Assembly (NCBI GenBank): GCA_016432345.1
Contig: CP066685.1
Span: 48,236-112,235, forward strand
Source: Candidatus Levyibacteriota bacterium
Lineage (GTDB): Bacteria > Patescibacteriota > Microgenomatia > Levybacterales > UBA12049
Direction of reading: 5' to 3'
DNA: 64,000 bases
The notes under the pieces are model-generated. The model was not told the DNA's origin, searched no databases, and saw only the letters and a program-made list of their open reading frames with translations. Made by a program: the position numbers and the translations under genes. Below are positions 1,929-53,157 of the stretch, one piece after another (positions within the stretch are counted from its first letter, which is position 1; every line of letters starts with the position of its first letter).

Positions 1929-2356
1929 TTGATGAAAAAATGGTCGTTGAAAAAATTAGAAGAATTCAGATAGAGTTGCTTAATCTTGAAAGATTTGAAG
2001 TATTTACGTTTGACGAGGTGGCAAAAAATTATGATACGCATACAATTGTGGAACGGATTATCGAACGCATTGTTGGTTTTGCAATAGATATTAATCAGCA
2101 TATTCTTGTTGAAGGCGGAAAAGGTGATTTGCCATTTGATTTTAAGAAGAGTTTTCTTTTTCTTGTAGATTTGGATGTTTATCCAAAAGAATTTGCGGAA
2201 CAAATTTGTGAATCGGCAGGATTGCGTAATATTTTAGTGCATGATTATGTGAAGCTTGACGAAAATAAGTTTTATAATTCAATCAGAGATTGTAATCACG
2301 ATTACACCAAGTATTGTCGTTATATCCTTGATTTTCTTAAGAAGAAATCTTCATAA
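1925..2356 (+). CDS. hepT: HepT/DUF86 HEPN toxin
   Basis: RNILVHDY matches the HEPN Rx4HxY motif. Paired with the MNT gene. Confidence 0.8.
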   Translation: MIDEKMVVEKIRRIQIELLNLERFEVFTFDEVAKNYDTHTIVERIIERIVGFAIDINQHILVEGGKGDLPFDFKKSFLFLVDLDVYPKEFAEQICESAGLRNILVHDYVKLDENKFYNSIRDCNHDYTKYCRYILDFLKKKSS

Positions 2357-2359
2357 AAC

Positions 2360-2405
2360 TTTTTTCACATTTACATCGTAGAGCAAAAGAGGGAGGAAAT
2401 GCAAG
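2360..2405 (+). repeat. 46-bp direct repeat, copy 3 of 3
   Basis: TTTTTTCACATTTACATCGTAGAGCAAAAGAGGGAGGAAATGCAAG. Ends 1 nt before the 3' end of tRNA-Ser(GGA). Confidence 0.7.
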
Positions 2406-2492
2406 CGGAGAGGGAGGGATTTGAACCCTCGATATCCTTGCGGATATACAGCTTTTCCAAAGCTGCGCACTAGGCCACTATGCGACCTCTCC
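2406..2492 (-). tRNA. tRNA-Ser(GGA)
   Basis: Hand-folded cloverleaf: acceptor GGAGAGG/CCTCTCC, anticodon arm CAGCT-TTGGAAA-AGCTG, long variable arm, T arm GAGGG-TTCAAAT-CCCTC. CCA is not encoded. Confidence 0.9.
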
Positions 2493-2498
2493 AAAATT

Positions 2499-2564
2499 CA
2501 GCGTTTAGCGTCTAGATATTAGCGTTCAGTTAATCTTAAACTAGACGCTATTAACTATACGCTG
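2499..2564. repeat. Palindromic heptad-repeat element, copy A
   Basis: Sequence CAGCGTT TAGCGTC TAGATAT TAGCGTT CAG ... CTAGACG CTATTAA CTATACG CTG. The arms are mutually complementary. Overlaps the last codons of the Nudix gene. Confidence 0.75.
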
Positions 2565-2969
2565 CTTAGCCTCTTTCCAAACTTGCTTGTCTGATGGATA
2601 TGTTAATCTTTTTTCGACTTTATCAATTAGTAACCATTCTACGTTTTCCATTTCCCAGTCGTGATCTTTTATATCGCCAGATATATACTCCATTAAAAAA
2701 TAATATACTGTTTTTTTAATTTTTTGTCCTTCAAAAACATACCAGTAGGTAATTGGCGTTAAAGGTTGTAAAATTTTCCCCAATACTCCTGTTTCTTCTT
2801 TAACTTCCCGAATGGCAGTTTCTTTTTTGGTTTCGTTTTCTTTGTAATCACCAATCAATCCTTTTGGAAACACCCAACCATGATGTTGAGAGTGTTGTGC
2901 AACTAAAATCTCAAGACCCTTTCCCGTTTTTTTATAAACTATTCCTCCAGCCGAAAACTCAAACTTCAT
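2541..2969 (-). CDS. Nudix hydrolase
   Basis: Nudix box GLIGDYKENETKKETAIREVKEETGV, matching Gx5Ex7REUxEExGU. Confidence 0.85.
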   Translation of the reverse strand: MKFEFSAGGIVYKKTGKGLEILVAQHSQHHGWVFPKGLIGDYKENETKKETAIREVKEETGVLGKILQPLTPITYWYVFEGQKIKKTVYYFLMEYISGDIKDHDWEMENVEWLLIDKVEKRLTYPSDKQVWKEAKQRIVNSV

Positions 2970-3010
2970 AAATTATTGACACTTGTTATCTTTTGTGTAA
3001 CGATTATAGC

Positions 3011-3346
3011 ATGGATATTAGTCAGGAAGTAAATCTTATAGAGAAAGAATTATTAGAACTTATTCTTCAACATTTGGAAAATAACAAAATTGACGCGGAT
3101 AAAGCCCAAAGTTTGGCAAAAGATTTTTTGGCAATTCTTCCTGTGGCAGACCAAAAAGATTTACTCCAAAAGTTACAGAATTTAAGCAACATTTACGAAG
3201 AGGCAAAAGAATTGTATGTTGATGAACTTACAAAAGTCAGCAACGAGCAGCGAGATTTAACATTAACTCAAATGCGGGATGCGATTCAAAAAGGAAATAT
3301 CGAACATGCAATAACTGCGGCAAAATCGCTGCAGCAAAATAACTAA
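3011..3346 (+). CDS. Hypothetical helical protein
   Basis: ORF 2993-3346. The ATG at 3011 (MDISQEV...) is preferred over the upstream TTG. No recognisable motifs. Confidence 0.4.
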   Translation: MDISQEVNLIEKELLELILQHLENNKIDADKAQSLAKDFLAILPVADQKDLLQKLQNLSNIYEEAKELYVDELTKVSNEQRDLTLTQMRDAIQKGNIEHAITAAKSLQQNN

Positions 3347-3348
3347 AT

Positions 3349-3543
3349 ATGGAAGGTCCACAATTACCAAAACCAGAAGCTCCTAAACAACCACCCGCAG
3401 TGGAAAAAAGACTAGATAATCCTTTGCAAACAGCAAGAAATTGGGTAGAAGCTAAATTTGGCAGACAAAAACTTGCTGAAGGAGAAACAGCGCATGATAT
3501 TTTATTGGGTATCTCCGGGGAGAGTCGAACTCCCGATTTTTAG
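3349..3543 (+). CDS. Hypothetical small protein (doubtful)
   Basis: 64-aa ORF directly after the previous gene. Its last 34 nt read antisense through tRNA-Arg(CCG). Confidence 0.25.
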   Translation: MEGPQLPKPEAPKQPPAVEKRLDNPLQTARNWVEAKFGRQKLAEGETAHDILLGISGESRTPDF

Positions 3544-3583
3544 GTTCGGAACCTAATGTTTTGTCCATCTAAACTACGGAGAC
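3510..3583 (-). tRNA. tRNA-Arg(CCG)
   Basis: Acceptor GTCTCCG/CGGAGAT, anticodon arm TTAGG-TTCCGAA-CCTAA, T arm GGGAG-TTCGACT-CTCCC. Confidence 0.9.
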
Positions 3584-3589
3584 AGGTCT

Positions 3590-3669
3590 CAGTGTTTAGT
3601 TAATCAGCGTCTAGCGTATAGTTATCCATTTTTCAACTAAACGCTAATAAACTCGCCGCTAAACGCTTG
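3590..3669. repeat. Palindromic heptad-repeat element, copy B (more degenerate)
   Basis: CAGTGTT TAGTTAA TCAGCGT CTAGCGT ATAG ... AACTAAACGCTAATAAACTCGCCGCTAAACGCTTG. Lies between the tRNA-Arg 5' end and the helicase start. Confidence 0.65.
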
Positions 3670-3720
3670 TATTGTACTAGATTCGTTTTTTCCAGGCAAT
3701 GCTTGTATAATCAAGTGTAT

Positions 3721-6009
3721 ATGCCAGCACCAGCAGAAGCACCAACAGCCAATCGTTCTTCAGAAGCAACACGGTCAGAAGTACGATCTCAATCTGTCCA
3801 GCCAAGAGAGTTGTCTTTAATAGAAGGGAGAAAAGAAGAGCTCATTGGCTATTTTAGAACACATAATACGGTTGTCTTAAAAGCAGGGACAGGAACAGGA
3901 AAATCCACCACTGGCCCTCTTATTTTACTCGAAGCTCTCCAGAGGGAAAACCCCGGTAAAAAAGTAAAAATACTGGTGGCCGAGCCACGGCAAATGTTGG
4001 CAGAGGGTATTTCTGATCATGTGGCAAAAACAAACGGCGTGCCATTGGGTGGAGATTTAATTGGTTTTTATCATGGGGATGACCATAAGTATTCGGACCA
4101 AACGCAAATTGTCTATACAGTTAATGGGTCGCTTCGAAAAAGAATAGAAGAGGATAAAGCTCTTTCAAAATACGATGCCGTCTGTTTGGACGAAATACAC
4201 TTACGCGACAGAGACCAGGAGGCAATTCTTATTGGATTAAAAGAAGTGCAAAAAGAACGCAAAAAACGAGGGCTAAAACCTTTTAAAATTCTTATTACTT
4301 CCGCCAACGCCGAGCAAAAACAGGCAGATTACTATGATAATGGGGTAATGATGGAGATAGAAGGGCAAAAACCTCGTTATGATGTTAAAGAACATTTTTT
4401 AGATAAAGCTCCTGACGTAGAAAATATTCCCATAGAAATGGCGAGATTGGCAGCAAAAGTTATCAAAGAAAAAAGGCGACCAGGACATCTTTTAGGGTTT
4501 TTACCGGGAAGACGGGAAATCCAAATTGCCCAAAAAGAGTTTGACCGCATTATGAGGGAAGAGGGTTTGGCGGATAAATATAAATCGGCCTCTCTTACCG
4601 GTGGTGGCGGCGAAGAAAATAAGGCTTTGCAGAAAAAATTACAAGATGATGATCCAAATATAAACCCAATTATGGCTTTTGCTACCGATGTGGCAGATGC
4701 GGGGGCAACGTTTGCAATTAGCGACGCTTTTGACGGCGGGCTTATACGGACTATGGTTTACGACAAAGAGTCGGGTCTTGAGTCCCTGCAAACCAGACAT
4801 CATGCGGTAAGTCAGTATATTCAACGAAAGGGAAGACTTGGAAGAATTTCAGATGGCGATTTTTATGCCATGTATTCAGAGGAAGAACTTAACAATCCGG
4901 GAATTCATCCCAAAGATGCACCTCCCTCAATCTTAATGGAAGACCTTACCCCATTAGTATTAAGCTTAAAAGCCATGGGTATTACCGATGTGTATGCTGT
5001 TGATTACATGGATCATCCGGGAAAAGAAAAATTAGACATGGCGGTCGGAACTCTCAATGTGCTGGGGGCACTAAAACCAGATGGCACACTGACAGATGAG
5101 GGAAAAGCTATGGTTGAACTGCCTTTGGATTCTCATTTAGCTCGTATTTTGGTGGAGGTCAAAAAGCGGGGGTGTGTGGAAGCAGCCAGTGTACTTGTGG
5201 CCTTTTTAAATAGTAATAGATCTGTTTTTGCCTACAATCCTCGAAGCGAGCAGTTTGACAAAAAATATGCCAGGTATATTTATACTGAACCTAATAAACC
5301 ACCAGATTCCGATTACCTAACACTATTAAAAGTTTGGAATGAATATAATCATCCAGAACTGCGGGAAGAAAACGAAAGACAAATGTCGGGGGAGGACTGG
5401 GCGCTAAAACATGGGTTTAGCATAAGCGTATTAAAGGATGTTAATACAACCAAAAACGAAATTCTCCAGGAGGATTTTTTTAAGGGTGCATTTGGTGGAG
5501 GCTTAGGTAATTTGGAAATTGATATTGCCGGCCAGGCCGACGCCATCAAAGCATGTATTGTGGCAGGATTTGCGGACAAGATTTTGCTAAGAGATGGCGA
5601 TACTTATGCATTGGGGAATGGGAAGCGGCCAGGTATTCAGATTGATCAAAAATCGGTCTTTGCCCAAAGGCGTCCCGGAATGTTGATTTCGGGCGCAATT
5701 CGGGTGCAAGAGGGCGGCAGGGCGTTTGCGAGTATGAATTGGGAAGTAACGAAAGAATTTGTAAAGGGAGTTGCGCCATATTTAGAAGAGATGGGATTAG
5801 TTGAGAAAGAACAAGAGGTACCGAAAACAGCAGCAGAACAGGTAAAAAACGAGCTGCAGACAGAAGCGGCAAAGGCTTCGAAATCGAGCGTTCCTGCCGA
5901 GTCTGAATCAAAAGAACAAAAAGCAGAAAAAAAACTGTCTATTATTGGGAAAATAAAACAAGCGTTTAAAACTTTTTTTGATAGAATAAAAGCATTTTGG
6001 GGATTATAG
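3721..6009 (+). CDS. DEAH-box ATP-dependent helicase (HrpA/HrpB-like)
   Basis: GTGTGKST Walker A and the LDEIH motif II, followed by an HA2-like C-terminal region and a Lys/Glu-rich tail. ATG at 3721 is preferred over the TTG at 3667. Confidence 0.85.
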   Translation: MPAPAEAPTANRSSEATRSEVRSQSVQPRELSLIEGRKEELIGYFRTHNTVVLKAGTGTGKSTTGPLILLEALQRENPGKKVKILVAEPRQMLAEGISDHVAKTNGVPLGGDLIGFYHGDDHKYSDQTQIVYTVNGSLRKRIEEDKALSKYDAVCLDEIHLRDRDQEAILIGLKEVQKERKKRGLKPFKILITSANAEQKQADYYDNGVMMEIEGQKPRYDVKEHFLDKAPDVENIPIEMARLAAKVIKEKRRPGHLLGFLPGRREIQIAQKEFDRIMREEGLADKYKSASLTGGGGEENKALQKKLQDDDPNINPIMAFATDVADAGATFAISDAFDGGLIRTMVYDKESGLESLQTRHHAVSQYIQRKGRLGRISDGDFYAMYSEEELNNPGIHPKDAPPSILMEDLTPLVLSLKAMGITDVYAVDYMDHPGKEKLDMAVGTLNVLGALKPDGTLTDEGKAMVELPLDSHLARILVEVKKRGCVEAASVLVAFLNSNRSVFAYNPRSEQFDKKYARYIYTEPNKPPDSDYLTLLKVWNEYNHPELREENERQMSGEDWALKHGFSISVLKDVNTTKNEILQEDFFKGAFGGGLGNLEIDIAGQADAIKACIVAGFADKILLRDGDTYALGNGKRPGIQIDQKSVFAQRRPGMLISGAIRVQEGGRAFASMNWEVTKEFVKGVAPYLEEMGLVEKEQEVPKTAAEQVKNELQTEAAKASKSSVPAESESKEQKAEKKLSIIGKIKQAFKTFFDRIKAFWGL

Positions 6010-6010
6010 G

Positions 6011-6095
6011 CGGAGGGTACAGGATTCGAACCTGTGTAGGGATTACTCCCTCGAGTTTTCGAAACTCGTGCAATTGTCCACTATGCGAACCCTCC
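6011..6095 (-). tRNA. tRNA-Ser(CGA)
   Basis: Acceptor GGAGGGT/ACCCTCC, anticodon arm CGAGT-TTCGAAA-ACTCG, long variable arm. Starts 2 nt after the helicase stop. Confidence 0.9.
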
Positions 6096-6101
6096 AAAAC
6101 T

Positions 6102-6168
6102 CAGCGTATAGCGTATAGAAATTAGGGTATAGTTTTAACTAAACGCTAGACGCTATTCACTAGACGTT
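6102..6168. repeat. Palindromic heptad-repeat element, copy C
   Basis: CAGCGTA TAGCGTA TAGAAAT TAGGGTA TAG ... AACTAAACG CTAGACG CTATTCA CTAGACG. Fills the gap between two tRNA genes. Confidence 0.75.
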
Positions 6169-6172
6169 AATG

Positions 6173-6247
6173 TGGTGCACCCACCCAGAATCGAACTGGG
6201 ATTAGCGGCTCCGCAAGCCGCTGTTCTATCCGTTAAACTATAGGTGC
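6173..6247 (-). tRNA. tRNA-Arg(GCG), CCA encoded
   Basis: Acceptor GCACCTA/TGGGTGC, anticodon arm GCGGC-TTGCGGA-GCCGC, T arm CCCAG-TTCGATT-CTGGG, 3' ACCA. Confidence 0.85.
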
Positions 6248-6295
6248 TTATAGCATAGCTATTATACTACAAGTTTACCCCGATTAAATCGGGGT

Positions 6296-6898
6296 TTAGG
6301 TGGTTTTCCGTTCCAGAGGAAATGTGCGGGCCAGCCAGTCGGCTGATTTTTCCATAAAGGTTGGTTTGATAATTTCCCGGTAGGGGAGATATTGTAATAG
6401 GAGCGATGTTAATTGCTTTTTATCTAAATCCCCAAGCATAATAATAAGCTCTCCTGGTAAAAATGTTTTGGTTCTAACATGTAGTGTTTCAATGCCTTCT
6501 CTTTTTTTGAAATAAAAATCATAGAGTTCTTGCCATAGATAAAAATGATCTTCAATAGTAATGCCCTCGGTGCTTAGGCGGTATTTAAAATCATGCGGTG
6601 GGACAGTAACAAGCGCAAAGGCGGCAAAAACAAAAGATAACACTACCACCATTAGCATATATTGAGAAAAAAGAAAAAGGATAATTTCGATAAATAGTGT
6701 CAAAAGCAGAGAAGTTAAGTAGTACTCTTTGCCTCTTTTTCTAAATGGTCTGCCAGGTGCTTTCCAGGAAAGAAGTGTTTTTAATTCGTGCATATCATTT
6801 GGTAAATCTAATGGTTCGCTAGGTAAATCAAGCGGTTCTTTTGGCAGAAATTGTTCTGTTTGGTTTTGAGCAGCCATAGCTTTATTACTGTATAGCAT
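6296..6898 (-). CDS. Hypothetical membrane protein
   Basis: Central hydrophobic hairpin (LTSLLLTLFIEIILFLF...VVVLSFVFAAFALV). The start is trimmed to the ATG at 6898 because the track start at 6961 overlaps tRNA-Ser(GCU). Contains a tandem EPLDLPS/EPLDLPN duplication. Confidence 0.5.
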   Translation of the reverse strand: MLYSNKAMAAQNQTEQFLPKEPLDLPSEPLDLPNDMHELKTLLSWKAPGRPFRKRGKEYYLTSLLLTLFIEIILFLFSQYMLMVVVLSFVFAAFALVTVPPHDFKYRLSTEGITIEDHFYLWQELYDFYFKKREGIETLHVRTKTFLPGELIIMLGDLDKKQLTSLLLQYLPYREIIKPTFMEKSADWLARTFPLERKTT

Positions 6899-7029: not shown

Positions 7030-8827
<1,798 letters not shown>

Positions 8828-8832
8828 AACTT

Positions 8833-8918
8833 AAATGCCCCCACTGGGTTGTGCTCAGAACGGTGAAGTCCTGTCCCAATGAGGGCATTAAAAAACTCCA
8901 CCTTTCTCCTGAGCACAA
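8833..8918 (-). promoter_or_regulatory. Interleaved inverted repeats in the recombinase leader
   Basis: AATGCCCCCACTGGG (8833-8847) pairs with CCCAATGAGGGCATT (8875-8889). TTGTGCTCAG (8849-8858) pairs with CTGAGCACAA (8909-8918). The order A,B,A',B' gives pseudoknot topology, and the structure ends 6 nt from the start codon. Confidence 0.35.
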
Positions 8919-8957
8919 TTAAATTGTTACAGATTTTGAACTTAAATTCAAGTGTTT

Positions 8958-9590
8958 TCATATAGGTAAAAGGTCATTTTCTATTTCGTAATTAAGCATA
9001 AGTCCTGCAAGTCGTTGTTGTTCGTCAACTAATATTCTTTCTTCAGGTTTATCACTTAACCAACCATTCTTTTCATCAATATTTTTACTTAACTCATCTA
9101 CTTTATTCTTAATATCATTATATTCATCTACTGTACTAATACGATACTTACCCTTATAAGAAACTATAGTATTTTCATCTGTTTCATCTTGATTTGACTG
9201 CAATTCTGCAATATTTTCTTGCGTTTCTGCAATTCGGTCATGCAAATTTGCATTTTCATCTTGCAATTTAGCAATATCATTTTTTGAATTTGGTAACAAA
9301 ACTATTTCATAAAAACTTCTTGCCTTTTCTTTTATTGTTCCTTTTTGAATAAGTCCATTTCTTACCCGACATACTTTAGATGCTGACCAACCTAAAATAT
9401 CAGCAAGTACTTTATCTGTTGTTTCAACAGTTTGATATGTTTCCTCATGTTTTTTATCCCAATCGTAAACAGCTAAGTATAAATCCCACAACCGATACTC
9501 AGAATCTTTAAGGTTTAACCGTTTTGCTACATGATGACGATTACGATAAACCTTTTGGTAAGTATTATTCAGCCTTCTTAATATGTTCAT
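8958..9590 (-). CDS. Hypothetical protein, possible winged-helix N-terminus plus coiled coil
   Basis: 210-aa ORF. The LADILGWSASKVCRVRNGLIQKG segment looks HTH-like and the C-terminal half is acidic coiled coil. Confidence 0.45.
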   Translation of the reverse strand: MNILRRLNNTYQKVYRNRHHVAKRLNLKDSEYRLWDLYLAVYDWDKKHEETYQTVETTDKVLADILGWSASKVCRVRNGLIQKGTIKEKARSFYEIVLLPNSKNDIAKLQDENANLHDRIAETQENIAELQSNQDETDENTIVSYKGKYRISTVDEYNDIKNKVDELSKNIDEKNGWLSDKPEERILVDEQQRLAGLMLNYEIENDLLPI

Positions 9591-9794
9591 ATTCCTTCTT
9601 TGGAATTGGCTTATATATCAGCTTGAAATATTCCAATAGCTCAACACCCAACTTATTTGCTTCTTCATTGCTTAACTGTTGGTTAAATTTCTCAAGATAT
9701 ATTCGCTTAAAATCACTAATAGCTTTATGACTTAACTGCATAAAACCATTATTCCAAGAATGGAGAAGATAAAAGAGTTACGGGAAAAACTAAA

Positions 9795-10619
9795 TTACAT
9801 GTAGACCGCTAGAAGCTGTTTATATCTATATATCGCTTGCTTGACGTTGGTTAGCTCAGGTATCAAATATCTGTTTTTGTTGGTTTGATATTGTTTTTTG
9901 ACTTTATCAGAGGCTATAGACAATGCAATTTTTGTATAACTTTCACCTGCTAAATTTCGCCAATACCAATCCCTATCCCTTCGAATATTGTTTGCAGGGT
10001 CTTTTTTCATCCTGTAAAAGTGTTTAAGTAGTTGCTCATTTTCTTCAAAGATTTTAGGTACATTATCCTCAAAGATTTTTATCAAATCATCTTTAGTTGT
10101 CATGGGAGAAATACGGATAATAACTTCAGGATATGGGATTTCTTCAAGATGCAGTTCAGGCGGAAATACTTCTATGCTAGTTGTTCGATAGCTACTGTCG
10201 TCAACTTCACCGCAGACAATAGCACGTTGGATTATAGAGGTAAAATATTCAGGTCTTTTAAAATCCCTGCTTAGATTTTGTGTTTCCCATTCAAACCGCT
10301 TGTAATAGGCAACATATTGAAGGCGTCTTTCTATATCTTTGGGGTGTTTCTTAATATCTTCAAGTTCAGCCTCGATTTTGCCCGATTTATATCTTTCAGC
10401 TTGCCACTCGACACTCTCAAGCATTTTCTGTGAACGCCATGCATCGAAGTCTTCGTAAGATATTAACTTATCTATTGAGAATTTTTGCCTTAGTAAGGGC
10501 AAGAGTCTTAAAAATTCAGGTTTATCAAGAAGATAGGCACAATCCATATATGCAATATCATTTTTGCAGTTTATTTTTATCTTTAGTTTTAATAAATCAG
10601 AGTTGTCTTTTTGTTTCAT
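9795..10619 (-). CDS. Hypothetical protein (element cargo)
   Basis: 274-aa ORF with no motifs I recognise. Confidence 0.45.
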   Translation of the reverse strand: MKQKDNSDLLKLKIKINCKNDIAYMDCAYLLDKPEFLRLLPLLRQKFSIDKLISYEDFDAWRSQKMLESVEWQAERYKSGKIEAELEDIKKHPKDIERRLQYVAYYKRFEWETQNLSRDFKRPEYFTSIIQRAIVCGEVDDSSYRTTSIEVFPPELHLEEIPYPEVIIRISPMTTKDDLIKIFEDNVPKIFEENEQLLKHFYRMKKDPANNIRRDRDWYWRNLAGESYTKIALSIASDKVKKQYQTNKNRYLIPELTNVKQAIYRYKQLLAVYM

Positions 10620-10814
10620 AGTATCCTGTATATATTTTACACAAACTAGGGATGGGGGTGGTTAGCTTTAGAAATTATTTTTGTTACAATGTTCTTTGAT
10701 GCCTCTTATAATCGGGTCTAATTTTCAAAACTAGATTTTAGAGTAAAAACAGAGAGTCTTTCAGGTATAGAGTAAGACCAATAAAAACAACCATTAAAAA
10801 CTTGATGAAATCTT

Positions 10815-11297
10815 ATGGCAGACAAATTAATTTCAAACACAAAAAGGGATAAACTTTTAAATAAGTGTGAGAGTTTAATGCTCCAAGGGGTCGACAGTCC
10901 AACTGATATATCAGAATCCTTAAATGTTTCTTTTAATACCGCAAGAAGCTATGTAACCATCATTAAACAAAGATGGTCAAACTATTCAAACACTGAAGAA
11001 TTACAAGCTAAACGACAAGAATTAATTCGAAAAACAGAAGAAGTGATAAAAGAGGCGTGGACACTTAAAAATCACGCTAGAAACACCCTAGAAGCCGTTG
11101 GAAGCCTTCGCACTGCTCTCATGGGCATTGAGAGGCTACAAAAACTACTTGGGATTGATTCCTTGCCTATACCAATCGAGAAACCTGTTGAAATTCAGAC
11201 TTTTGAGCTTGCTCAAGAGGTTATTGCGTTACCTGAAGAAGATAAGAGTGTAGCGTTATCTATGATTAGAGAGGAAATTAAGAAAAGAGCTTGCTAA
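10815..11297 (+). CDS. Hypothetical protein, possible HTH
   Basis: 160-aa ORF. DSPTDISESLNVSFNTARSYVTII is HTH-like. Confidence 0.45.
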   Translation: MADKLISNTKRDKLLNKCESLMLQGVDSPTDISESLNVSFNTARSYVTIIKQRWSNYSNTEELQAKRQELIRKTEEVIKEAWTLKNHARNTLEAVGSLRTALMGIERLQKLLGIDSLPIPIEKPVEIQTFELAQEVIALPEEDKSVALSMIREEIKKRAC

Positions 11298-11365
11298 AAT
11301 ACCTATTGATTTTTTAATAAGGATTTGAGATAATTAATGTATAGGATAATAAATTTGAGAATTAT

Positions 11366-12085
11366 ATGAAAATTAAGAAAAAGGCTTCCTCTAAATATTC
11401 TTTTCAAAAAGGATTTTCCCCAATAATCATTGTTGTAATAGCTTTTGTTGTGCTTCTAGGCGGAGTATTTATATACTCAGTTTCAAAAAATCCAGCAGTC
11501 CAAAAACAGGTTGAGTTACAAAAATCCCTTCAAAATACTAGCCAAGATATTCCAAAAGGCAATGCTCACTGGGATAAATCACAAGATTTATTTTCCCAAA
11601 TGAAAAAAGAGACAGACACGGAAAAGATAAAAAAACTAAATGACCAGGCCATACAGGAGTTAAAAGCTGTACTTGATGAGATGCCGAATAATGCTAGAGT
11701 TTGGGATGAGCTTGGGAATGCATATACCTGGGTAAGCAGTTTAGATCCCAAAGCTCAGTTAGACTTAGGATTAGCAGCTTATAAAAAGGCAGAAGAATTA
11801 GACTCAAATAACACTGTCTATATAAATGCTGTGGGTGACCAACTAATAAGCATGCAGAGATACGATGAGGCTATTTTGCAATTTCAAAAGACTTTAAGGC
11901 TTACTCCTAATTCTGGCTATGCTAATTTGAGCTTATGTAATGCTTACAAAGGTGCAAAGGTTTATGATTCTGCCAGAGAAAGCTGCCAAAAGGCTATAGA
12001 TATATTCACTAATGAGAATAAAGACGGAAAGTATGACAGCCAGGTTTTAGAAGCAAAAAAAGCTATGGCTGGTATACCTAAATAA
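11366..12085 (+). CDS. TPR-repeat protein with N-terminal membrane anchor
   Basis: N-terminal TM segment (FSPIIIVVIAFVVLLGGVFIY), followed by TPR-like repeats (WDELGNAY..., AYKKAEELD..., YDEAILQFQKTLRL...). Confidence 0.65.
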   Translation: MKIKKKASSKYSFQKGFSPIIIVVIAFVVLLGGVFIYSVSKNPAVQKQVELQKSLQNTSQDIPKGNAHWDKSQDLFSQMKKETDTEKIKKLNDQAIQELKAVLDEMPNNARVWDELGNAYTWVSSLDPKAQLDLGLAAYKKAEELDSNNTVYINAVGDQLISMQRYDEAILQFQKTLRLTPNSGYANLSLCNAYKGAKVYDSARESCQKAIDIFTNENKDGKYDSQVLEAKKAMAGIPK

Positions 12086-12091
12086 TATTAT

Positions 12092-12445
12092 ATGAATAGA
12101 CCAAAATTTTTAACAGGTTGGCTAATTTTTATGATTATTGGAAATGTATTCTCTCTTTATTCCTATACTTTAGGTTCTGATAACATAGCAAAGACGCTAC
12201 CCAATATGCCTTCCTGGGCAATAACTGTATTTGCAGTAGGAGCAGTAGTAAATTTATTTGCTGTTGTAATGTTATGGATGTGGAAGAAAATGGGTTTTTA
12301 TATCCTAATTGGTTTAGCAATCGTTGTAGCTTCGTTGAATGGTATGCTATTAGGGGTTGCAGGAGTTTTTGCAAGTCTTTTTTCTCTGATTGGAGTAGGA
12401 ATTCTTTACCTAGCTATGAAGCCAGTTTGGCAAAACTTCAAATAA
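12092..12445 (+). CDS. Small multi-pass membrane protein
   Basis: 117 aa with about four hydrophobic segments. Confidence 0.5.
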   Translation: MNRPKFLTGWLIFMIIGNVFSLYSYTLGSDNIAKTLPNMPSWAITVFAVGAVVNLFAVVMLWMWKKMGFYILIGLAIVVASLNGMLLGVAGVFASLFSLIGVGILYLAMKPVWQNFK

Positions 12446-12614
12446 AATAATTGCCTCTGCAGAATATACAAGGATCAAAATAAACTTAAAGACAATCCTT
12501 TGACCTGGATTTTTTAACTTCAGTAAGAAGATTCTGCTATAATTACAGGGCAGAATAAACGGGAACCATAGAATAATTATTGATAAAATAGGTTCTAACA
12601 GCGTCAATGGTTCG

Positions 12615-12709
12615 CCGCCAAGGAGAGGTCGCATAGCGGACTAGTGCAGCAGTTTTGAAAACTGCCGTGACAGCAATGTTACCGTGGGTTCGAATCCCAC
12701 CCTCTCCGC
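12615..12709 (+). repeat. Direct repeat, right (att-like)
   Basis: Identical to 7024-7118. Diverges after ...CTCTCCGC: TA here versus CA on the left. Confidence 0.9.
12622..12708 (+). tRNA. tRNA-Ser(UGA), copy 2, no encoded CCA
   Basis: Sequence identical to 7031-7117. Followed by CTA rather than CCA. Confidence 0.85.
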
Positions 12710-19582: not shown

Positions 19583-19650
19583 CAGCGTTTAGCGTATAGA
19601 TAATAGCGTATAGTTTAACTAAACGCTAGACGCTAACAAACTAGACGCTG
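19583..19650. repeat. Palindromic heptad-repeat element, copy D (best preserved)
   Basis: CAGCGTT TAGCGTA TAGATAA TAGCGTA TAGTTTAACTAAACG CTAGACG CTAACAA ACTAGACGCTG. Exactly fills the gap between two co-directional genes. Confidence 0.8.
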
Positions 19651-21399
19651 TCATCGTCTTTCTACATTATACAACGGGCCGACAATTTGAATATTTGCAG
19701 GTGCGCGTAAATTAAACCAGTCTTTAAATTCTGATCCGTTAAAACTTGTCGAACCAGCATCTCCAGAAAGATTGATTGTACTTATTTTACCACTGCCAAA
19801 ATCAGGACTTACCGAAACATCAGAAACATTATTATAAGGAGTAATATTTCTTGACAAAAGTTCTTGTTTTACTCTATTTGCATCCCAAACTTCTCCTCCG
19901 TAAGGATGGGGTTTGTCTGTTTGGTATAAATGGTCTTTAGCCGAAGAATCTACCCGTGCCAAGAGAATAATGTTAACAATATCAGCCACTTCATCAGGTT
20001 TTAACCAGGCAGTTTTGTTGTATTGGTTTCTTGATCCCCAGTCGCAGTAAAACCAGGGAGAATTGGCATGCGAAGGACCATCATAAGCATTATTTCTAAG
20101 ATCGTCAAAACTGTTTATGGAATCAGATGTTGTGTCTTTAGCGTTTTTAGTAAAAGAAGTTCCATTCCAGCCAATGTCGCCTGATGATTTTATATAACCT
20201 CCGTGAGTTGAGGAATACCATGCTTTGATAGGATTTCCTCCTTCAATCATCACCCAACCCTTAGTTATCTCAACTGCTTCGTTCCATTTCCCTCCTTTTT
20301 CGTTTGCTAAAAATACTTGGCAACGGTCAGTCGGGCAAATTGTTCCACTTCCATTATTGGTATAGGCTAATGCGTACGAACGGGCAGCGATAGCTTGCGC
20401 TTTTTGCGCTTCAAATCCTCCTTCGTTGCCCCAAGATTCTGGCATCTCTCCTAAATGTTTTAAGTAATCTTCAATCTTAAATGAACCAAAGCCATCGACG
20501 TTGATGGAAATATCTTGGCTGTAATCTTTTTTCAATTCATAATTTGTGTAATATGTTCGTAAAATGTCCTCGGCGTTTTGCCCTGCCCTTGATCTTCCAA
20601 ATGCGCCGTATTGCGAAAGACCGACTCGGTTGGGAACGCCGTAGGTAAAAAAAGCCAGACGGGGAGAAAATCCAGGATCTTTTTCCCTGTCATCAATGCA
20701 GGCAGGGACGCCTGCGCCAGCAGAGCGGGGGATGCCAAGACTTGCTAATCTTTGAGAGATAATATCTTGTTGTTTTGCCGAAAGTTGGGCGATTTGACTG
20801 GATAGTTTTTGTTGATAGGCTTTGGCACCAGACACAACCTCGTCTAATTTTTTACTTTGTTCGTCCAGAGTTGTTTTAAGTTGCGCCAGTCGGGTTTGTT
20901 CGATCTCAAGCGTTTTCTTTTTTTCCTCAAGATCAGAAATTGTAATGGCAATGTTGGTGATAATGGCTTTATCTTGATCTGCGGCGGCTTTTTGGTAGGC
21001 TAAAATCTGGGTGATTTCGGATGCCGATTGGAAAGAAAAAAAAGTAGCAAGCGGCGAATCGTAGTGGCTACGTATGTAATAATCACGAATTGTCCGGTTT
21101 AAAATTTCTTCCTGTTTGGTTAAATCTTTATAACCTTTATCGATATTTTTTCGTTTTTCTGCGACATCTGATTCGATTTCCAAAACTCTGTTTTTGATAT
21201 CATTGATTCTTTTTTGCAGACTGTTGAGTTCGGATTCAAGCGGGCGTGTTGCTTTAATTGACATATTTAATGCAGATGTTAAATCATTAATTTGCTTGTT
21301 GATGTCATCAAGCTCATCAGATAAAATTTTGGGGGCAAAAAGTGTGATAAAAGAAAAGAGAAAGACGAACAAAAACAATAAAAAAATCAACCGCTTCAT
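19651..21399 (-). CDS. SpoIID/LytB-domain protein with N-terminal coiled coil
   Basis: Signal/TM segment, long coiled coil, then KAQAIAARSYALAYT...CPTDRCQVF...WYSSTHGGY, which are SpoIID family motifs. Confidence 0.75.
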   Translation of the reverse strand: MKRLIFLLFLFVFLFSFITLFAPKILSDELDDINKQINDLTSALNMSIKATRPLESELNSLQKRINDIKNRVLEIESDVAEKRKNIDKGYKDLTKQEEILNRTIRDYYIRSHYDSPLATFFSFQSASEITQILAYQKAAADQDKAIITNIAITISDLEEKKKTLEIEQTRLAQLKTTLDEQSKKLDEVVSGAKAYQQKLSSQIAQLSAKQQDIISQRLASLGIPRSAGAGVPACIDDREKDPGFSPRLAFFTYGVPNRVGLSQYGAFGRSRAGQNAEDILRTYYTNYELKKDYSQDISINVDGFGSFKIEDYLKHLGEMPESWGNEGGFEAQKAQAIAARSYALAYTNNGSGTICPTDRCQVFLANEKGGKWNEAVEITKGWVMIEGGNPIKAWYSSTHGGYIKSSGDIGWNGTSFTKNAKDTTSDSINSFDDLRNNAYDGPSHANSPWFYCDWGSRNQYNKTAWLKPDEVADIVNIILLARVDSSAKDHLYQTDKPHPYGGEVWDANRVKQELLSRNITPYNNVSDVSVSPDFGSGKISTINLSGDAGSTSFNGSEFKDWFNLRAPANIQIVGPLYNVERR

Positions 21400-31005: not shown

Positions 31006-31242
31006 ATGATACGAACACAAGTGTATTTACCTAAAGAGCTCTATCAAGAAGTGCAGTTAGTAGCCAAGAAAGAGAGCAAAAAATCTGCTCAAGTAGTGCG
31101 CGATTTATTGAGCGAGGGATTAATAAGGCGTAAGAAAAAAGTAACGATTGGAGAGGCTTTTCTTGATCTAGCTAGCGTGGCCGTAAAAGGCGGTCCTCCT
31201 GATTTATCTACAAATCATGATAAGTATCTATATGAAGACTAA
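31006..31242 (+). CDS. Ribbon-helix-helix antitoxin (VapB-like)
   Basis: MIRTQVYLPKELYQEVQLVAKKESKKSAQVVRDLL is an RHH pattern. Located upstream of, and overlapping, the PIN gene. Confidence 0.7.
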   Translation: MIRTQVYLPKELYQEVQLVAKKESKKSAQVVRDLLSEGLIRRKKKVTIGEAFLDLASVAVKGGPPDLSTNHDKYLYED

Positions 31243-31654
31243 TAAAGCAGTTATTGCAGACACAAGTGGTCTAATTTCTCTTGTTTCGAAAGATGATAGT
31301 AATTATAAAGAAGCAATTTCAATTGGTAAAAGCCTCTCAAAAGTAGAAGGAAGAATTTATATCCCAACAGAGATTTTTGCTGAGACTATGAATGTTCTTG
31401 GCAAGAAAATTAATCATGCATCAGCAATAAGAGCAGCTAGAAAGATAGAGCGCTCGCCATTTTTTTTAATTGTGGATACTACGCATGAAATTAGAAGAAG
31501 CGCGCTAGATCAATTTGAAAAAATTTCAGAATCAATAAGCTTTACTGACTGTCTTGTTATGGCATGTGCGAATTTTTATGAGACAAAAGAAATTTTTGGT
31601 TTTGACGAAGCATTTCGGAAGAATGGATATAAACGGATTGGGATTGATAAGTAA
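31217..31654 (+). CDS. vapC: PIN-domain toxin VapC
   Basis: VIADTSGLISL (first acidic residue), EIFAET and SFTDCLVMA. An alternative ATG lies at 31232. Confidence 0.8.
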   Translation: MISIYMKTNKAVIADTSGLISLVSKDDSNYKEAISIGKSLSKVEGRIYIPTEIFAETMNVLGKKINHASAIRAARKIERSPFFLIVDTTHEIRRSALDQFEKISESISFTDCLVMACANFYETKEIFGFDEAFRKNGYKRIGIDK

Positions 31655-34271: not shown

Positions 34272-34300
34272 TTGACACTGCAGATGTAGTGTCATATTCT
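34272..34300 (+). promoter_or_regulatory. Putative nrdR-nrdJ promoter
   Basis: TTGACA, 17 nt, TATTCT. Overlaps NrdR box 1. Confidence 0.4.
34274..34293 (+). promoter_or_regulatory. NrdR box 1 (atypical, 2 bp wider)
   Basis: GACACTGCAGATGTAGTGTC has palindromic arms GACACT/AGTGTC. Its centre is 32 bp from the centre of box 2. Confidence 0.5.
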
Positions 34301-34307
34301 TGATTTT

Positions 34308-34323
34308 GCACTATATATAGCGT
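34308..34323 (+). promoter_or_regulatory. NrdR box 2
   Basis: GCACTATATATAGCGT compared with the published consensus acaCwAtATaTwGtgt. Confidence 0.7.
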
Positions 34324-34409
34324 TTAGAAACTAGCGTTCAGCGTCTAGTTATACTATAATAATAACTAAAATAATAACTAAGCGCTAGACTCTAATAACT
34401 AAACGCTAA
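34317..34409. repeat. Heptad-repeat element, copy E (degenerate, in the nrdR leader)
   Basis: ATAGCGTTTAGAAACTAGCGTTCAGCGTCTAG ... AAGCGCTAGACTCTAATAACTAAACGCTAA. Confidence 0.5.
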
Positions 34410-39219: not shown

Positions 39220-39727
39220 AGGGGAGACATCGCTATATGGCGGAAAAAGAGTATCAAAAGCAGATCTAAGAGTTGAAGCCTATGGGACAGTGGATGAACT
39301 CAACAGCGCAATAGGTATTACGATTGCGCAATTTTCAAATAAATCTCAAATAATAAATCTCAAAAAAGAACTTACACAAATTCAAAATGATTTGTTTGAA
39401 ATTGGCTCAATCTTAGCGAGTCCATCAACTATACGCTATACGCTAGACGCTAGACGCTTGGAGAAGATGATTGATGAGATGACAAAAGAACTTCCAGAGC
39501 TTCGAAACTTTATTTTGCCAGGAGGAGGTATTGTAGGTTCGTATTTGCATCTTACTCGTTCGATTGCAAGGCGGGCAGAACGAAGAATTGTTGTATTGTC
39601 TCAAAAAGAGCAGGTTGACAAAAGTATTTTAATGTATTTTAATCGTCTTTCTGATTTGCTGTTTACCATGGCTAGGTTTGTAAATTATAAAGAAAATAAA
39701 AAAGAAGTTATTTGGACAAATAAATAG
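39188..39727 (+). CDS. pduO: PduO-type ATP:cob(I)alamin adenosyltransferase
   Basis: KIYTKTGDKGETSLYGGKRVSK, DELNSAIG, NFILPGG and ARRAERR. Confidence 0.9.
   Translation: MVKIYTKTGDKGETSLYGGKRVSKADLRVEAYGTVDELNSAIGITIAQFSNKSQIINLKKELTQIQNDLFEIGSILASPSTIRYTLDARRLEKMIDEMTKELPELRNFILPGGGIVGSYLHLTRSIARRAERRIVVLSQKEQVDKSILMYFNRLSDLLFTMARFVNYKENKKEVIWTNK
39429..39458 (+). repeat. Heptad array (CTATACG CTATACG CTAGACG CTAGACG) in frame inside pduO
   Basis: This is the right-arm type of the palindromic family. 22 nt (39424-39445) are identical to 52944-52965. Encodes STIRYTLDARR. Confidence 0.9.
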
Positions 39728-39818
39728 ACGGGTGAAACCTTGTGAAATTCAAGGGTAGTGCCGCTACTGTGACAACCAGAGCCCCGATATGAGTCTTCCG
39801 AGCAGAAGCGTTTTTTTT
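39728..39818 (+). ncRNA. Candidate cobalamin riboswitch (short variant)
   Basis: GGUGAAACCUUGUGAAAUUCAAGGGUAGUGCCGCUACUGUGA aligns without gaps to the core consensus AGGGAAnnnnGGUGnAAnUCCnnnnCnGnnCCCGCnACUGUnA. The CCUUG-UGAAAUU-CAAGG hairpin resembles P4/L4, and CGGG...CCCG forms a closing helix. A U8 run precedes the ATG at 39819. Confidence 0.45.
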
Positions 39819-48643: not shown

Positions 48644-48645
48644 TG

Positions 48646-48717
48646 TACCAGGGGTGGGGATCGAACCCACAACCGTAGCGTTATGAATGCTGTGCTCCAC
48701 CATTGAGCTACCCTGGC
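48646..48717 (-). tRNA. tRNA with CAU anticodon (Met or Ile2), imperfect
   Basis: Acceptor GCCAGGG/CCCTGGT (G1:U72), D arm GCTC/GAGC, anticodon loop TTCATAA, T arm GTGGG-TTCGATC-CCCAC. The anticodon stem CAGCA/CGCTA has two mismatches. Its 3' end lies 2 nt from the IS end. Confidence 0.6.
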
Positions 48718-51821: not shown

Positions 51822-53157
51822 AGATAAAAAAATTGCGGTTTTGGGAATGGGAATAGAGGGAGAATCAAGCGCAGAATTCCTTCGTAAGCGCGGTGCCAAT
51901 GTTGCAGAATTAGATCAGAAAATAGATAAAGATTATCTTGAGTATCTGGAAAAGTTTGACATGATTGTTAGAAGTCCGGGAATTAAAAGAAATCTTCCTC
52001 AACTTATTGAAGCAGAAAAAAAAGGAGTAATTATTACCTCCCAAACCAAACTTTTTTTTGATATGTGTCCCTGTCCAATTATTGGTGTGACCGGTACTAA
52101 AGGAAAGGGGACAACATCTGCGCTTATTTATGAAATGTTAAAAGAATCTGGTAAGGATGTGTATTTAGGTGGCAATATTGGTAATCCTCCATTTACATTT
52201 TTGGATAAACTTACTATTCAGTCAAAAGTGGTTTTAGAAATGTCTAGTTTTCAACTGCAAGACATGACTGTAAGTCCGCACATTGGTGTTGTTTTAATGA
52301 TTACTCAAGAACATTTAGCTCCTGATAAAAAAGACAGTCCAGACCAGAATTTTCATACCGATATTTATGAATATATTGATGCCAAAAGAAACATTATTCG
52401 TTTTCAGAGCAATAAAGATTTTGCAGTAATCAATAGAGACTATATTGCCAGTAACGAGTCGGATATCACAACCGCGGGAAAAGTATTTCATGTCAGCCGC
52501 GAGCAGGGAGTTAGTCAGGGAGCATATGTAAAAAATAATGTAGTATTCTTGCGGTTTAACGATAAAGAGCAAAAAATTATTGATGCAAAAGACGTCTTGC
52601 TTCGGGGTGGACATAATTTGGAAAACGTGTGTGCAGTGGTGATGGCGGCAACGCTTTCCGGCGTAACGGCTAAAAATATAGTTTCAGTCTTAACCAGTTT
52701 TCGAGGACTGGAACATAGGCTGCAGTTTATTGGCCAAGTGAGTGGAGTTGAGTATTATGACGATTCGTTTTCGACTACTCCCGAAACTGCTATTGCGGCA
52801 ATCCAGGCCTTTACCGAGCCGGAGGTTTTAATTCTGGGAGGCGCACATAAGGGGAGCGATTTTACCGAGTTAGGCAGGGTTATTAGTGAAGCAAAAAATA
52901 TCAAAGCCATTATCGGCATCGGCATTGAGTGGAGCAGGATAAAATCAACTATACGCTATACGCTAAACGCTATGCGTTATATTGAAGGATGTGGGGATAT
53001 GCAGGAGATTGTACGAAAGGCAGCCGAGGTGGCAAAGCCGGGGGATGTGGTGGTATTGAGTCCTGCCTGTAGTAGTTTTGATATGTTTAAAAATTACAAA
53101 GACCGGGGCGAGCAGTTTAAGAGGGAAGTTGGAAAATTAGAACTCTATACTCCATAA
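51808..53157 (+). CDS. murD: UDP-N-acetylmuramoylalanine--D-glutamate ligase
   Basis: IAVLGMGIEG, GVTGTKGKGTTS, GGNIGNP and LSPACSSFDMFKNYKDRG. ATG at 51808 is preferred. Confidence 0.9.
   Translation: MYDFKDKKIAVLGMGIEGESSAEFLRKRGANVAELDQKIDKDYLEYLEKFDMIVRSPGIKRNLPQLIEAEKKGVIITSQTKLFFDMCPCPIIGVTGTKGKGTTSALIYEMLKESGKDVYLGGNIGNPPFTFLDKLTIQSKVVLEMSSFQLQDMTVSPHIGVVLMITQEHLAPDKKDSPDQNFHTDIYEYIDAKRNIIRFQSNKDFAVINRDYIASNESDITTAGKVFHVSREQGVSQGAYVKNNVVFLRFNDKEQKIIDAKDVLLRGGHNLENVCAVVMAATLSGVTAKNIVSVLTSFRGLEHRLQFIGQVSGVEYYDDSFSTTPETAIAAIQAFTEPEVLILGGAHKGSDFTELGRVISEAKNIKAIIGIGIEWSRIKSTIRYTLNAMRYIEGCGDMQEIVRKAAEVAKPGDVVVLSPACSSFDMFKNYKDRGEQFKREVGKLELYTP
52949..52976 (+). repeat. Heptad array (CTATACG CTATACG CTAAACG CTATGCG) in frame inside murD
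   Basis: Same element type and same reading frame as the copy in pduO. Encodes STIRYTLNAMRY. Confidence 0.9.

Follow-up and report, generated by a model that had tools for sequence, protein, structure and literature searches.

Heptad-phased hairpin repeats at gene junctions of a Levyibacteriota genome and their likeness to cassettes of four-helix-bundle genes

This analysis concerns a family of small hairpin repeats, built from 7-nt units (heptads), in a 64,000-nt stretch of the genome of a Candidatus Levyibacteriota bacterium (assembly GCA_016432345.1, contig CP066685.1, positions 48,236–112,235 of the forward strand; hereafter "the window", in which positions are counted from its first letter). 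A first-pass annotation, made by a model from the letters alone, had listed five intergenic copies, and all five were recovered where it had placed them, each 66–93 nt long, the one at 34317–34409 proving to be a version with a longer loop. Each copy consists of a left arm of about four (T/C)AGCGTn heptads, a short A/T-rich loop (TAGTT..AACTA), and a right arm of about four nACGCTA heptads. The third unit of an arm is usually deviant and keeps only the TAG or CTA phase (TAGATAT, TAGAAAT, TAGATAA, TAGTTAA). The copy at 2499–2564, for instance, reads CAGCGTT TAGCGTC TAGATAT TAGCGTT CAGTTAA..CTA GACGCTA TTAACTA TACGCTG, and those at 3590–3669, 6102–6168, and 19583–19650 are built in the same way. 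Copies at unrelated sites are up to 91% identical over 55 nt, and short Logan contigs from sample SRR12113425, while 100% identical to the window, are broken at the elements.

Three of the copies adjoin tRNA genes, as had been reported, with 5–6 nt left to the tRNA 5′ ends, and the copy at 6102 leaves 4 nt to the 3′ end of the preceding tRNA-Arg(gcg) and 6 nt to the 5′ end of tRNA-Ser(cga). A Nudix gene on the minus strand (2541–2969) runs into the copy at 2499, whose right end provides its last seven codons (QRIVNSV) and its TAG stop. Two half-copies that it did not list lie inside genes. Both are solo right-arm arrays that start with TCAACTATACGCTATACGCTA, share the same 21 nt, and are read in a common frame, giving STIRYTL(D/N)A(R/M)R (Table 1).

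Table 1. Hairpin copies, solo arrays, and adjoining tRNA genes in the window. In the unit order, H and h stand for heptads of the left and right arm and x for a deviant unit.
Feature	Position	Strand	Build and context
Full hairpin copy	2499..2564	.	H H x H H' / h x h; upstream of tRNA-Ser(gga), with 6 nt left to its 5′ end
Full hairpin copy	3590..3669	.	H x H H / h x h h, opposite asymmetry; 5 nt upstream of the tRNA-Arg(ccg) 5′ end
Full hairpin copy	6102..6168	.	H H x H / h h x h; spacer between tRNA-Arg(gcg) and tRNA-Ser(cga)
Full hairpin copy	19583..19650	.	Occupies the entire gap from the stop of a SpoIID-domain gene (19651-19653, minus) to the ATG of the next gene (19577, minus)
Copy with longer loop	34317..34409	.	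H x H H / h h x h; stops 3 nt short of the ATG of nrdR (34413)
tRNA-Ser(gga)	2405..2492	-	Directly downstream of the 2499 copy along transcription
tRNA-Arg(ccg)	3506..3584	-	Directly downstream of the 3590 copy along transcription
tRNA-Ser(cga)	6009..6095	-	Directly downstream of the 6102 copy along transcription
tRNA-Arg(gcg)	6173..6247	-	Directly upstream of the 6102 copy along transcription
Solo right-arm array	39425..39459	+	TCAACTA TACGCTA TACGCTA GACGCTA GACGCTT; in a PduO-type adenosyltransferase gene; encodes STIRYTLDARR
Solo right-arm array	52945..52979	+	TCAACTA TACGCTA TACGCTA AACGCTA TGCGTTA; in murD; encodes STIRYTLNAMR

That these elements make up one family, dispersed and imperfectly palindromic with heptads in phase, was borne out by the sequence, by shuffled controls, and by predicted folds. 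Overall, TAGCGTNTAGCGT with at most two mismatches matched the window 21 times, compared to 2.3 ± 1.5 times in dinucleotide shuffles (maximum 6), i.e., an approximately nine-fold excess. The underlying skeleton, in which a loop separates a TAG-phased from a CTA-phased array, occurred 52 times in 1.17 Mb of fetched DNA and was absent from shuffles. For every window copy, folding predicts an imperfect hairpin (−18 to −36 kcal/mol, z −2.5 to −5.4) whose arms of ~28–31 nt are terminal inverted repeats that would form a long stem, as in the intervening sequences (IVSs) of 23S rRNA genes. When arms were compared across 50 hairpins from 30 loci, the two arms of the same element were more complementary to each other than to the arms of other elements (9.0 vs 8.25 of 16 variable positions, a value reached in 127 of 100,000 permutations). 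Pairing in a shifted register, with units in the same order and not as a mirror image, had no preferred register at the variable positions. What stays constant across the fetched loci is a TAG every 7 nt on one arm and a CTA every 7 nt on the other. Since 7 is not a multiple of 3, this skeleton places TAG stops in all three frames of both strands, so that an inserted copy terminates an upstream open reading frame (ORF) within ~7 codons, as it does in the Nudix gene.

The family extends well beyond this genome. A scan of 185,579 species genomes with AGCGTnTAGCGTnTAG returned at least 120 loci, many of which are arrays of 3–9 units, often with an inverted array next to them, and thus not chance single matches. 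Among the matches listed, hosts of such arrays include Levyibacteriota, Daviesbacteria, Curtissbacteria, Gottesmanbacteria, and other Microgenomates, as well as Omnitrophota, Atribacterota, Saccharibacteria, Nitrospira, and others. Copies in Microgenomates match those of the window in H H x H architecture and in their TAGTT..AACTA loop. Further copies in relatives do exist, both in Levyibacteriota and in other Microgenomates. A Levyibacteriota contig (L116 plus L006) is dense in them, with 14 copies in 16 kb, about one per gap among close-packed same-strand genes. All of these read (TAGnnnn)4 TAG, a loop of 6–15 nt, and CTA (nnnnCTA)4, followed by an A-rich stretch of 4–14 nt and an ATG; their inner four bases vary by copy (CGTC, GGTA, TAAT, GGTT) around an invariant TAG/CTA skeleton. 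They are predicted to form long helices that are interrupted at 7-nt intervals by a small internal loop (−17 to −33 kcal/mol, z −2.7 to −8).

Stable hairpins after stop codons could be intrinsic transcription terminators or attenuators, and short TTTT runs do follow the copies at 2499 and 6102 on the transcribed strand. We consider this role very improbable, however. A terminator scan of positions 2300–6400 called none of the three copies there, because they are without a G+C-rich uninterrupted stem and a T tract. In addition, copies sit inside tight operons, immediately ahead of start codons and of the 5′ ends of tRNAs, and for the 14 copies in 16 kb of close-packed genes termination at every gene would be lethal.

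Two further observations concern the units themselves. At several loci (L030 354–408, L080 1750–1870, L031, and L034), TAGCGTn arrays shade unit by unit into TTTAGGG, TATAGGG, or TTCAGGG, the first of which is also the unit of the plant-type telomere repeat. At four Atribacterota loci (L023, L077, L115, L101), heptad families of the TAGCGTn, TTGGTTA-like, and CTATATA types lie adjacent in the same intergenic regions, which suggests that arrays of different units are built beside one another there.

The general position of the element is from stop codon to element to start codon. For 30 of the 47 hairpins with enough flanking sequence, an ORF of 60 codons or more has its ATG 2–15 nt downstream, and where the genes on both sides are co-directional, the stop of the upstream gene is the edge of the element or one of its TAGs. 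A motif of four bases resembling a Shine–Dalgarno (SD) sequence lies between element and start in only 6 of these 30 cases; an SD-like motif is found upstream of the element in 12 of 30, for which the background control is too crude to attach significance. In hairpins, it is the CTA-type, non-stop arm that adjoins the ATG. The clustering around tRNA genes that the first-pass annotation described is, by contrast, local: outside the window, only one of ~47 hairpins adjoins a tRNA gene, and two of the three tRNA-linked copies look duplicated. Specifically, those at 2499 and 6102 lie within a block of 111 nt that is 77% identical between them and takes in the 5′ halves of the tRNA-Ser genes, and they probably go back to one event, with tRNA and element later duplicated together. 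Promoter-like hexamers lie just outside two of the copies (TTGCCT-17-TACAAT at 3699..3671 on the minus strand, TTGACA-17-TATTCT at 34272–34300), so that the copy at 3590 would be the 5′ leader of tRNA-Arg and the copy at 34317 would be the 5′ untranslated region (UTR) of nrdR. In Rfam scans, at gathering scores and at E ≤ 1, only tRNAs matched around the elements.

At a Gottesmanbacteria locus (L089), the two arms stand ~400 nt apart and enclose a 124-codon gene, flush with its ATG and its stop. This gene encodes a four-helix-bundle protein of family TIGR02436 (E = 1e-36), with a weak match to Avd, a protein of diversity-generating retroelements (DGRs). A tblastn search identified five further four-helix-bundle genes among the ≥120 pattern loci, and all six are flanked by heptads, between or beside the arms (L089, L036, L067, L050, L108, L095). 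The association holds even where the unit is quite unlike TAGCGTn, i.e., ATCAGCn with nGCTGAT in L108 and GATGCAn with TGAATCG in L095. The first-pass annotation had proposed searching for a co-occurring transposase or DNA-binding protein; a co-occurring gene does exist, only it is of the four-helix-bundle (S23p/Avd-like) kind and not a transposase.

To control for ascertainment bias, 80 JGI metagenome loci were taken by protein alone, yielding 72 four-helix-bundle genes with enough flank. A period-7 array was present within 100 nt upstream for 51% of these genes and within 100 nt downstream for 43%, compared to 5.8% on either side for other ORFs in the same loci. Arrays stood on both sides of 35% of the genes, while any array at all was found in 2.6% of random segments. 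When arrays were paired, 21 of 25 pairs were reverse complements, which together with the excess of own-arm complementarity indicates that the arms co-vary, a check that the first-pass annotation had called for. The consensus heptads upstream of four-helix-bundle genes contained a stop codon in 70% of cases, as opposed to 31% of random heptads. In these metagenomic cassettes, the array typically ends 2–10 nt before the ATG, and the stop of the gene is the first TAG or TAA of the downstream array. Unlike in the gene-less hairpins, the arm that adjoins the ATG is of the TAG type. Whole cassettes are predicted to pair the 5′ arm with the 3′ arm over 36–57 base pairs. The same arrangement was found on plasmids of Nostoc PCC 7120, N. 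punctiforme, and Geminocystis, and plasmid records holding a four-helix-bundle gene, mostly from Nostoc, Calothrix, and Trichormus, have that gene flanked by heptamers too. The protein family is very large, with at least 7,821 matches at E ≤ 1e-10 among the best 8,000 scored candidates; the phage database held no homologue.

The link could be followed back into the source genome. Two cassette genes (L126, L144) end in ..LVNSV* and ..AVQSV* within the arm AAGCGTT TAGTTAA TAGCGTT TAG, and this arm and peptide tail are those that end the Nudix gene in the window. A search with the L126 protein led to QQG41097.1, a Levyibacteriota four-helix-bundle protein encoded on the 762,565-bp contig to which the window belongs; within the window itself, tblastn and hmmsearch had found no such gene. 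The MurD and helicase proteins encoded in the window are identical to those of a Candidatus Levyibacteriota metagenome-assembled genome with this contig. We read its locus from a Logan twin (L220/L221) of the same sample as the Logan contigs of the window. On the 5′ side, TAGGGTA TAGAGAA TAGCGTT TAGCGTA TAG... precedes the ATG, and the gene ends in TAG; on the 3′ side follow TTCTAACTA TACGCTA TTTTCTT TACGCTA TACGCTT, 6 nt, and the ATG of the next gene. The source genome therefore holds a full cassette with window-type arms and with TAGTT/AACTA junctions that equal the loops of the gene-less copies. The arms of the window copies are homologous to the arms of four-helix-bundle cassettes, one of them in the same genome. 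A candidate promoter of this cassette (TTGAAA-17-TATAAA) was picked out by eye, the promoter scan making no call. Directly after the cassette lie PrgI-like and TraC/VirB4-like type IV secretion genes (L220 606–6214), and the window has a gene for a TrwB/TraG-like coupling protein at 41429–43810.

A relative (L204) carries orthologues of the SpoIID-domain gene and of the gene next to it (57% and 44% protein identity), joined by TAA-AAT-ATG alone. The spacer at this junction is 3 nt long, against the 68 nt of the copy at 19583 in the window. The copy is therefore a gain into the spacer, and by this comparison at least one member of the family has been inserted at a site that is empty in an orthologous locus. 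The empty site came from a contig holding a homologue of the DEAD/DEAH helicase that stands beside three of the copies. As a synteny test, the helicase itself failed, having only seven homologues, the closest at 55% identity.

Such an insertion polymorphism, together with the short, dispersed, intergenic palindromes and their conserved ends CAGCGT...ACGCTG, would also be expected of repetitive extragenic palindromic (REP) sequences or REPINs, or of a classical miniature inverted-repeat transposable element (MITE), moved in trans by a REP-associated tyrosine (RAYT, Y1) transposase or another insertion sequence (IS) transposase encoded elsewhere. Also in favor of this origin, the window has a transposase-like HTH_32 ORF pair (47823–48635), a serine recombinase, and a tyrosine recombinase. 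We nevertheless consider this origin improbable. A Pfam survey of the 62 window ORFs found no Y1/RAYT domain, in line with the earlier remark that no RAYT/IS200-type gene is nearby, and no target-site duplication was seen at the filled and empty junctions. Moreover, the sole gene found with the same arms is the four-helix-bundle gene (6 of 6 gene-holding pattern loci, plus the source genome), and the internal 7-nt phase and variable unit sequence are foreign to REP and MITE families. Other small palindromic repeats are transcribed within operons, as the window elements would be, i.e., Correia elements or Neisseria miniature insertion sequences (NEMIS) in Neisseria, and REP sequences and bacterial interspersed mosaic elements (BIMEs) in enterobacteria. 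Correia hairpins are substrates of RNase III, and REP hairpins influence mRNA stability; however, Correia elements have transposon-like inverted repeats and a TA duplication, REP sequences have a RAYT partner, and neither has a 7-nt phase.

Recent insertion of the solo arrays inside genes was considered and rejected, as they entail no net length change relative to solved homologues and as the murD array is common to diverged orthologues. There it stands at the same codons and in near-identical DNA (TCA ACT ATA CGC TAT ACG CTA AAC GCT..) in orthologues of 85, 69, and 63% protein identity. Loci with the array in murD are L210 (10140–10174), L212 (2317–2351), L211, and, in altered form, L213. In the murD of L213 (an 86% orthologue), all units have changed together to ATATACn (CTAnACG to ATAnACA), with frame and length kept. 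Identity at synonymous third positions was 0.82 in the murD array compared to 0.58 in the remaining gene; array windows were within 0.02 of the best among 407 sliding windows, with columns 454–455 tied at 0.82. The array codons have been kept although they are rare in this genome (CGC 12%, ACG 9%, CTA 8%). This conservation points to the array itself being under constraint, or to other copies acting on it through gene conversion. No partner arm was found near the murD array. Some other murD orthologues have long insertions at the same loop (P0004, P0006, P0053), and an AdoCbl-II riboswitch match (39716–39792) lies directly after the pduO-like gene.

Among known systems, the IVS of the Coxiella burnetii 23S rRNA gene, with other IVSs of the Leptospira type, is the closest precedent. 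The inverted repeats at its ends make up a 28-bp stem with an S23p ORF in the loop, and a putative SD sequence is followed by two to three (plus one degenerate) tandem GACAGAT heptamers right before the ATG (PMC4990558). The number of heptamers varies between strains, by one heptamer; mapping placed the cut by RNase III where the first heptamer begins, and the element is regarded as selfish (PMC4990558). The cassettes in L089, L220, and others have the same build, the 28-bp stem being equal to four heptads. An S23p ORF behind tandem heptamers, optional in an IVS, is present in the homologous cassettes (L089, L036, L126, L144, L220/L221), while the window copies are ORF-less. An IVS is inserted in a 23S helix (9, 25, or 45); the window has no rRNA gene, and its copies lie in mRNA spacers, a 5′ UTR, and tRNA leaders. 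The two also differ in unit (GACAGAT vs TAGCGTn) and in number, the window type having many copies per genome. Finally, RNase III cleavage has been shown experimentally for the Coxiella IVS and is a prediction for the window copies.

Tandem heptamers are also known from sites close to start codons. In Beggiatoaceae, Cyanobacteria, and Bacteroidetes, two to six TAACTGA heptamers end one to a few nucleotides before start codons, mostly without an SD sequence; these units provide stops in three frames, some overlap upstream stops, and they occur inside ORFs only in the non-stop orientation (PMC4679880). That they occur patchily among phyla suggests that they spread horizontally; as binders, S1, Csp, and CsrA have been proposed (PMC4679880). 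The hairpins resemble them in having an arm 2–15 nt before the ATG, but this arm is of the non-stop CTA type (of the TAG type in the four-helix-bundle cassettes). The unit differs, and TAACTGA arrays are nearly all direct (one inverted pair among 170 sets), with no hairpin and no associated gene reported. Intergenic arrays of GGGGA(C/T)T in Nostoc, and 70–75 convergent pairs of GGGAATC heptamers per genome in Xanthomonas, the latter able to form stem-loops (PMC4692102), are a further precedent. Like the window family, these are intergenic tandem heptamers, often in opposite-strand pairs, whose position is conserved in relatives while their unit number varies; unlike it, they are G-rich and have been studied as G-quadruplex formers, with no TAG phase, link to a gene family, or 4+4 architecture reported. 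Tandem 7-nt intergenic units, often as two convergent arrays, define heptameric simple-sequence repeats (SSRs) and short tandemly repeated repetitive (STRR) sequences, and this is what the window family has. Tandem heptamers of the STRR type have been known since 1990. The heptanucleotide STRRs of Calothrix, Nostoc, and Anabaena are likewise dispersed and intergenic, and these taxa dominate the plasmid records with heptamer-flanked four-helix-bundle genes. STRRs, first known from Nostoc, Calothrix, and Trichormus, have been described as direct arrays, however, and used mainly for fingerprinting; in the literature searched, neither a palindromic unit nor a link to a gene was found. The kind of family, which the first-pass annotation did not recognize as a described REP/MITE one, is nonetheless on record, since intergenic heptamer arrays, inverted pairs, and rRNA-IVS heptamers have all been published (PMC4692102, PMC4679880, PMC4990558). 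What is new here is a form from the Candidate Phyla Radiation (CPR) that is outside rRNA, mostly ORF-less, and based on the TAGCGTn unit; the kind is known but unexplained. The general association between heptamer arrays and four-helix-bundle genes apparently has not been reported, as no paper on it was found in a literature coverage that is incomplete and no proof of novelty.

Heptameric SSRs are in excess in bacterial genomes generally, and polymerase slippage has been held responsible (PMC4692102). The window elements could then be ordinary repeats made in situ by replication slippage, without dispersal or function and with incidental hairpins. Concerted unit changes, as in the murD of L213, and Coxiella strains that differ by one heptamer (PMC4990558) show slippage-like behavior. 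As an account of the whole family, we nonetheless find this very unlikely. Copies at unrelated sites share the 4+4 count, the deviant third unit, and the TAGTT..AACTA loop along with their high identity; arms are inverted and complementary far beyond chance; one gene family is associated with arrays 8- to 9-fold above other ORFs; and a whole 68-nt unit in a 3-nt gap is not a product of slippage.

Taken together, we find a real, dispersed, and foldable family whose copies stand flush between a stop and the next start or in tRNA leaders and spacers. The reading we favor, with a probability of roughly 55%, is that the window sites are the transcribed, ORF-less, IVS-like form of a widespread cassette in which inverted heptad arrays surround a TIGR02436/PF05635 gene. 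Specifically, copies would be transcribed with their neighbors as mRNA spacer, 5′ UTR, or tRNA leader, and the transcript of a copy would fold into a bead-like RNA hairpin. By analogy with the heptamer stem of the Coxiella IVS, RNase III would probably cut this hairpin, and cleavage would part cistrons or trim tRNA leaders. Stops in three frames would insulate neighboring genes, with the result that either insertion orientation would be tolerated. The elements may thus act as selfish or weakly domesticated processing or insulator modules. Their units undergo slippage-type concerted evolution in both number and sequence.

Several points weigh against this reading. That the copies are transcribed, fold in vivo, and are cut by RNase III is inferred; the window contains no RNase III gene, and the internal loop every 7 nt in many stems could block the enzyme. 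Within one genome, that of the contig with 14 copies, own-arm complementarity at variable positions exceeded that across elements only weakly (8.4 vs 7.7 of 16, p ~0.05), and no target-site duplication is visible in the one filled/empty comparison, that of the copy at 19583 with L204. Descent may have gone either way, i.e., a cassette may have lost its ORF or a gene may have landed in the loop of a pre-existing hairpin. To our knowledge, the four-helix-bundle protein has no transposition activity that would account for dispersal. Finally, hairpins alone do not account for the synonymous-site conservation of the partnerless array within murD.

In an alternative reading, the heptad array itself would be functional, as a sequence-specific RNA- or DNA-binding array for a trans-acting factor that sets translation initiation of the downstream gene or the fate of the transcript. 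Candidate factors would be the four-helix-bundle protein, ribosomal protein S1, or a protein resembling Csp or CsrA, and the palindrome would be two arrays facing each other, which is compatible with the cassette reading. We regard this alternative as possible but rather doubtful. The murD array has been kept at the nucleotide level over orthologues of 63–85% identity despite its rare codons, and its 21 nt recur in the pduO-like gene, yet gene conversion by other genomic copies could also produce conservation at synonymous sites. Arrays stand 2–15 nt before starts with an SD sequence seldom in between (6/30), and TAACTGA heptamers, placed alike, have had S1, Csp, and CsrA proposed as binders (PMC4679880). 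Phage-like contigs, too, have TAGCGTA arrays immediately before ATGs. On the other hand, the heptad sequence varies widely by locus and genome while the architecture is kept, which fits a structural or stop-codon role better; complementary arms and inverted pairing are the rule; and the candidate factors are putative. The phage-like cases are pure TAGCGTA arrays of 4–7 units on five IMG/VR contigs classed as viral (L214, L216–L219).

A bolder proposal, which we offer tentatively and hold to be on balance unlikely, is that inverted heptamer arrays and the TIGR02436/PF05635 gene form one widespread and hitherto unrecognized genetic unit, from CPR to Nostoc, Nitrospira, Omnitrophota, and Atribacterota, of which rRNA IVSs and STRRs would be special cases or relics, with the protein as a trans-acting factor that binds the arrays or has a part in creating or moving them. 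If true, such a unit of protein and array would also explain the nucleotide-level conservation of solo arrays in essential genes such as murD. We know of no role for the S23p/four-helix-bundle family outside DGRs.

The window has a number of other features. Two tRNA-Ser(tga) genes (7031–7120 and 12622–12709) bracket ~5.5 kb with a large serine recombinase (7088–8827, minus) and several ORFs without a Pfam match, and the stretch from 7031 to 12709 resembles an integrated element that uses tRNA-Ser as its attachment site. Genes of toxin–antitoxin type are found at 1051–2356, just beside the cluster of tRNA genes and elements, and at 31217–31654 (BrnT toxin, MNT-like nucleotidyltransferase with HepT RNase, PIN domain protein). 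Directly after nrdR, a ribonucleotide reductase gene (34864–38277) is split by an intein that carries a LAGLIDADG domain. At 46338–47204 there is a XerC/D-like recombinase. The HTH_32 ORF and the 172-codon ORF without a Pfam match that follows it (47823–48635 for the pair) stand beside tRNA-Met (48645–48717) and may represent a degraded IS. An Rfam group I intron match on the plus strand (49545–49745; 66.5 bits, above the gathering score) lies outside any detected tRNA or rRNA gene, overlapping a 91-codon minus-strand ORF just upstream of a major facilitator superfamily (MFS) transporter gene.

For genome annotation, these elements matter in that they supply gene ends, as in the tail of the Nudix gene, occur inside genes, and break short-read assemblies. 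They also illustrate that compact CPR genomes tolerate dozens of hairpins wedged at stop/start junctions and in tRNA leaders. More generally, heptamer repeats are over-represented in many bacterial genomes, with neither function nor origin established, and this locus suggests that they are paired with the S23p family and that a more general cassette exists, for which the intervening sequences of rRNA are one of its habitats. The association makes the old question of the heptamer repeats testable.

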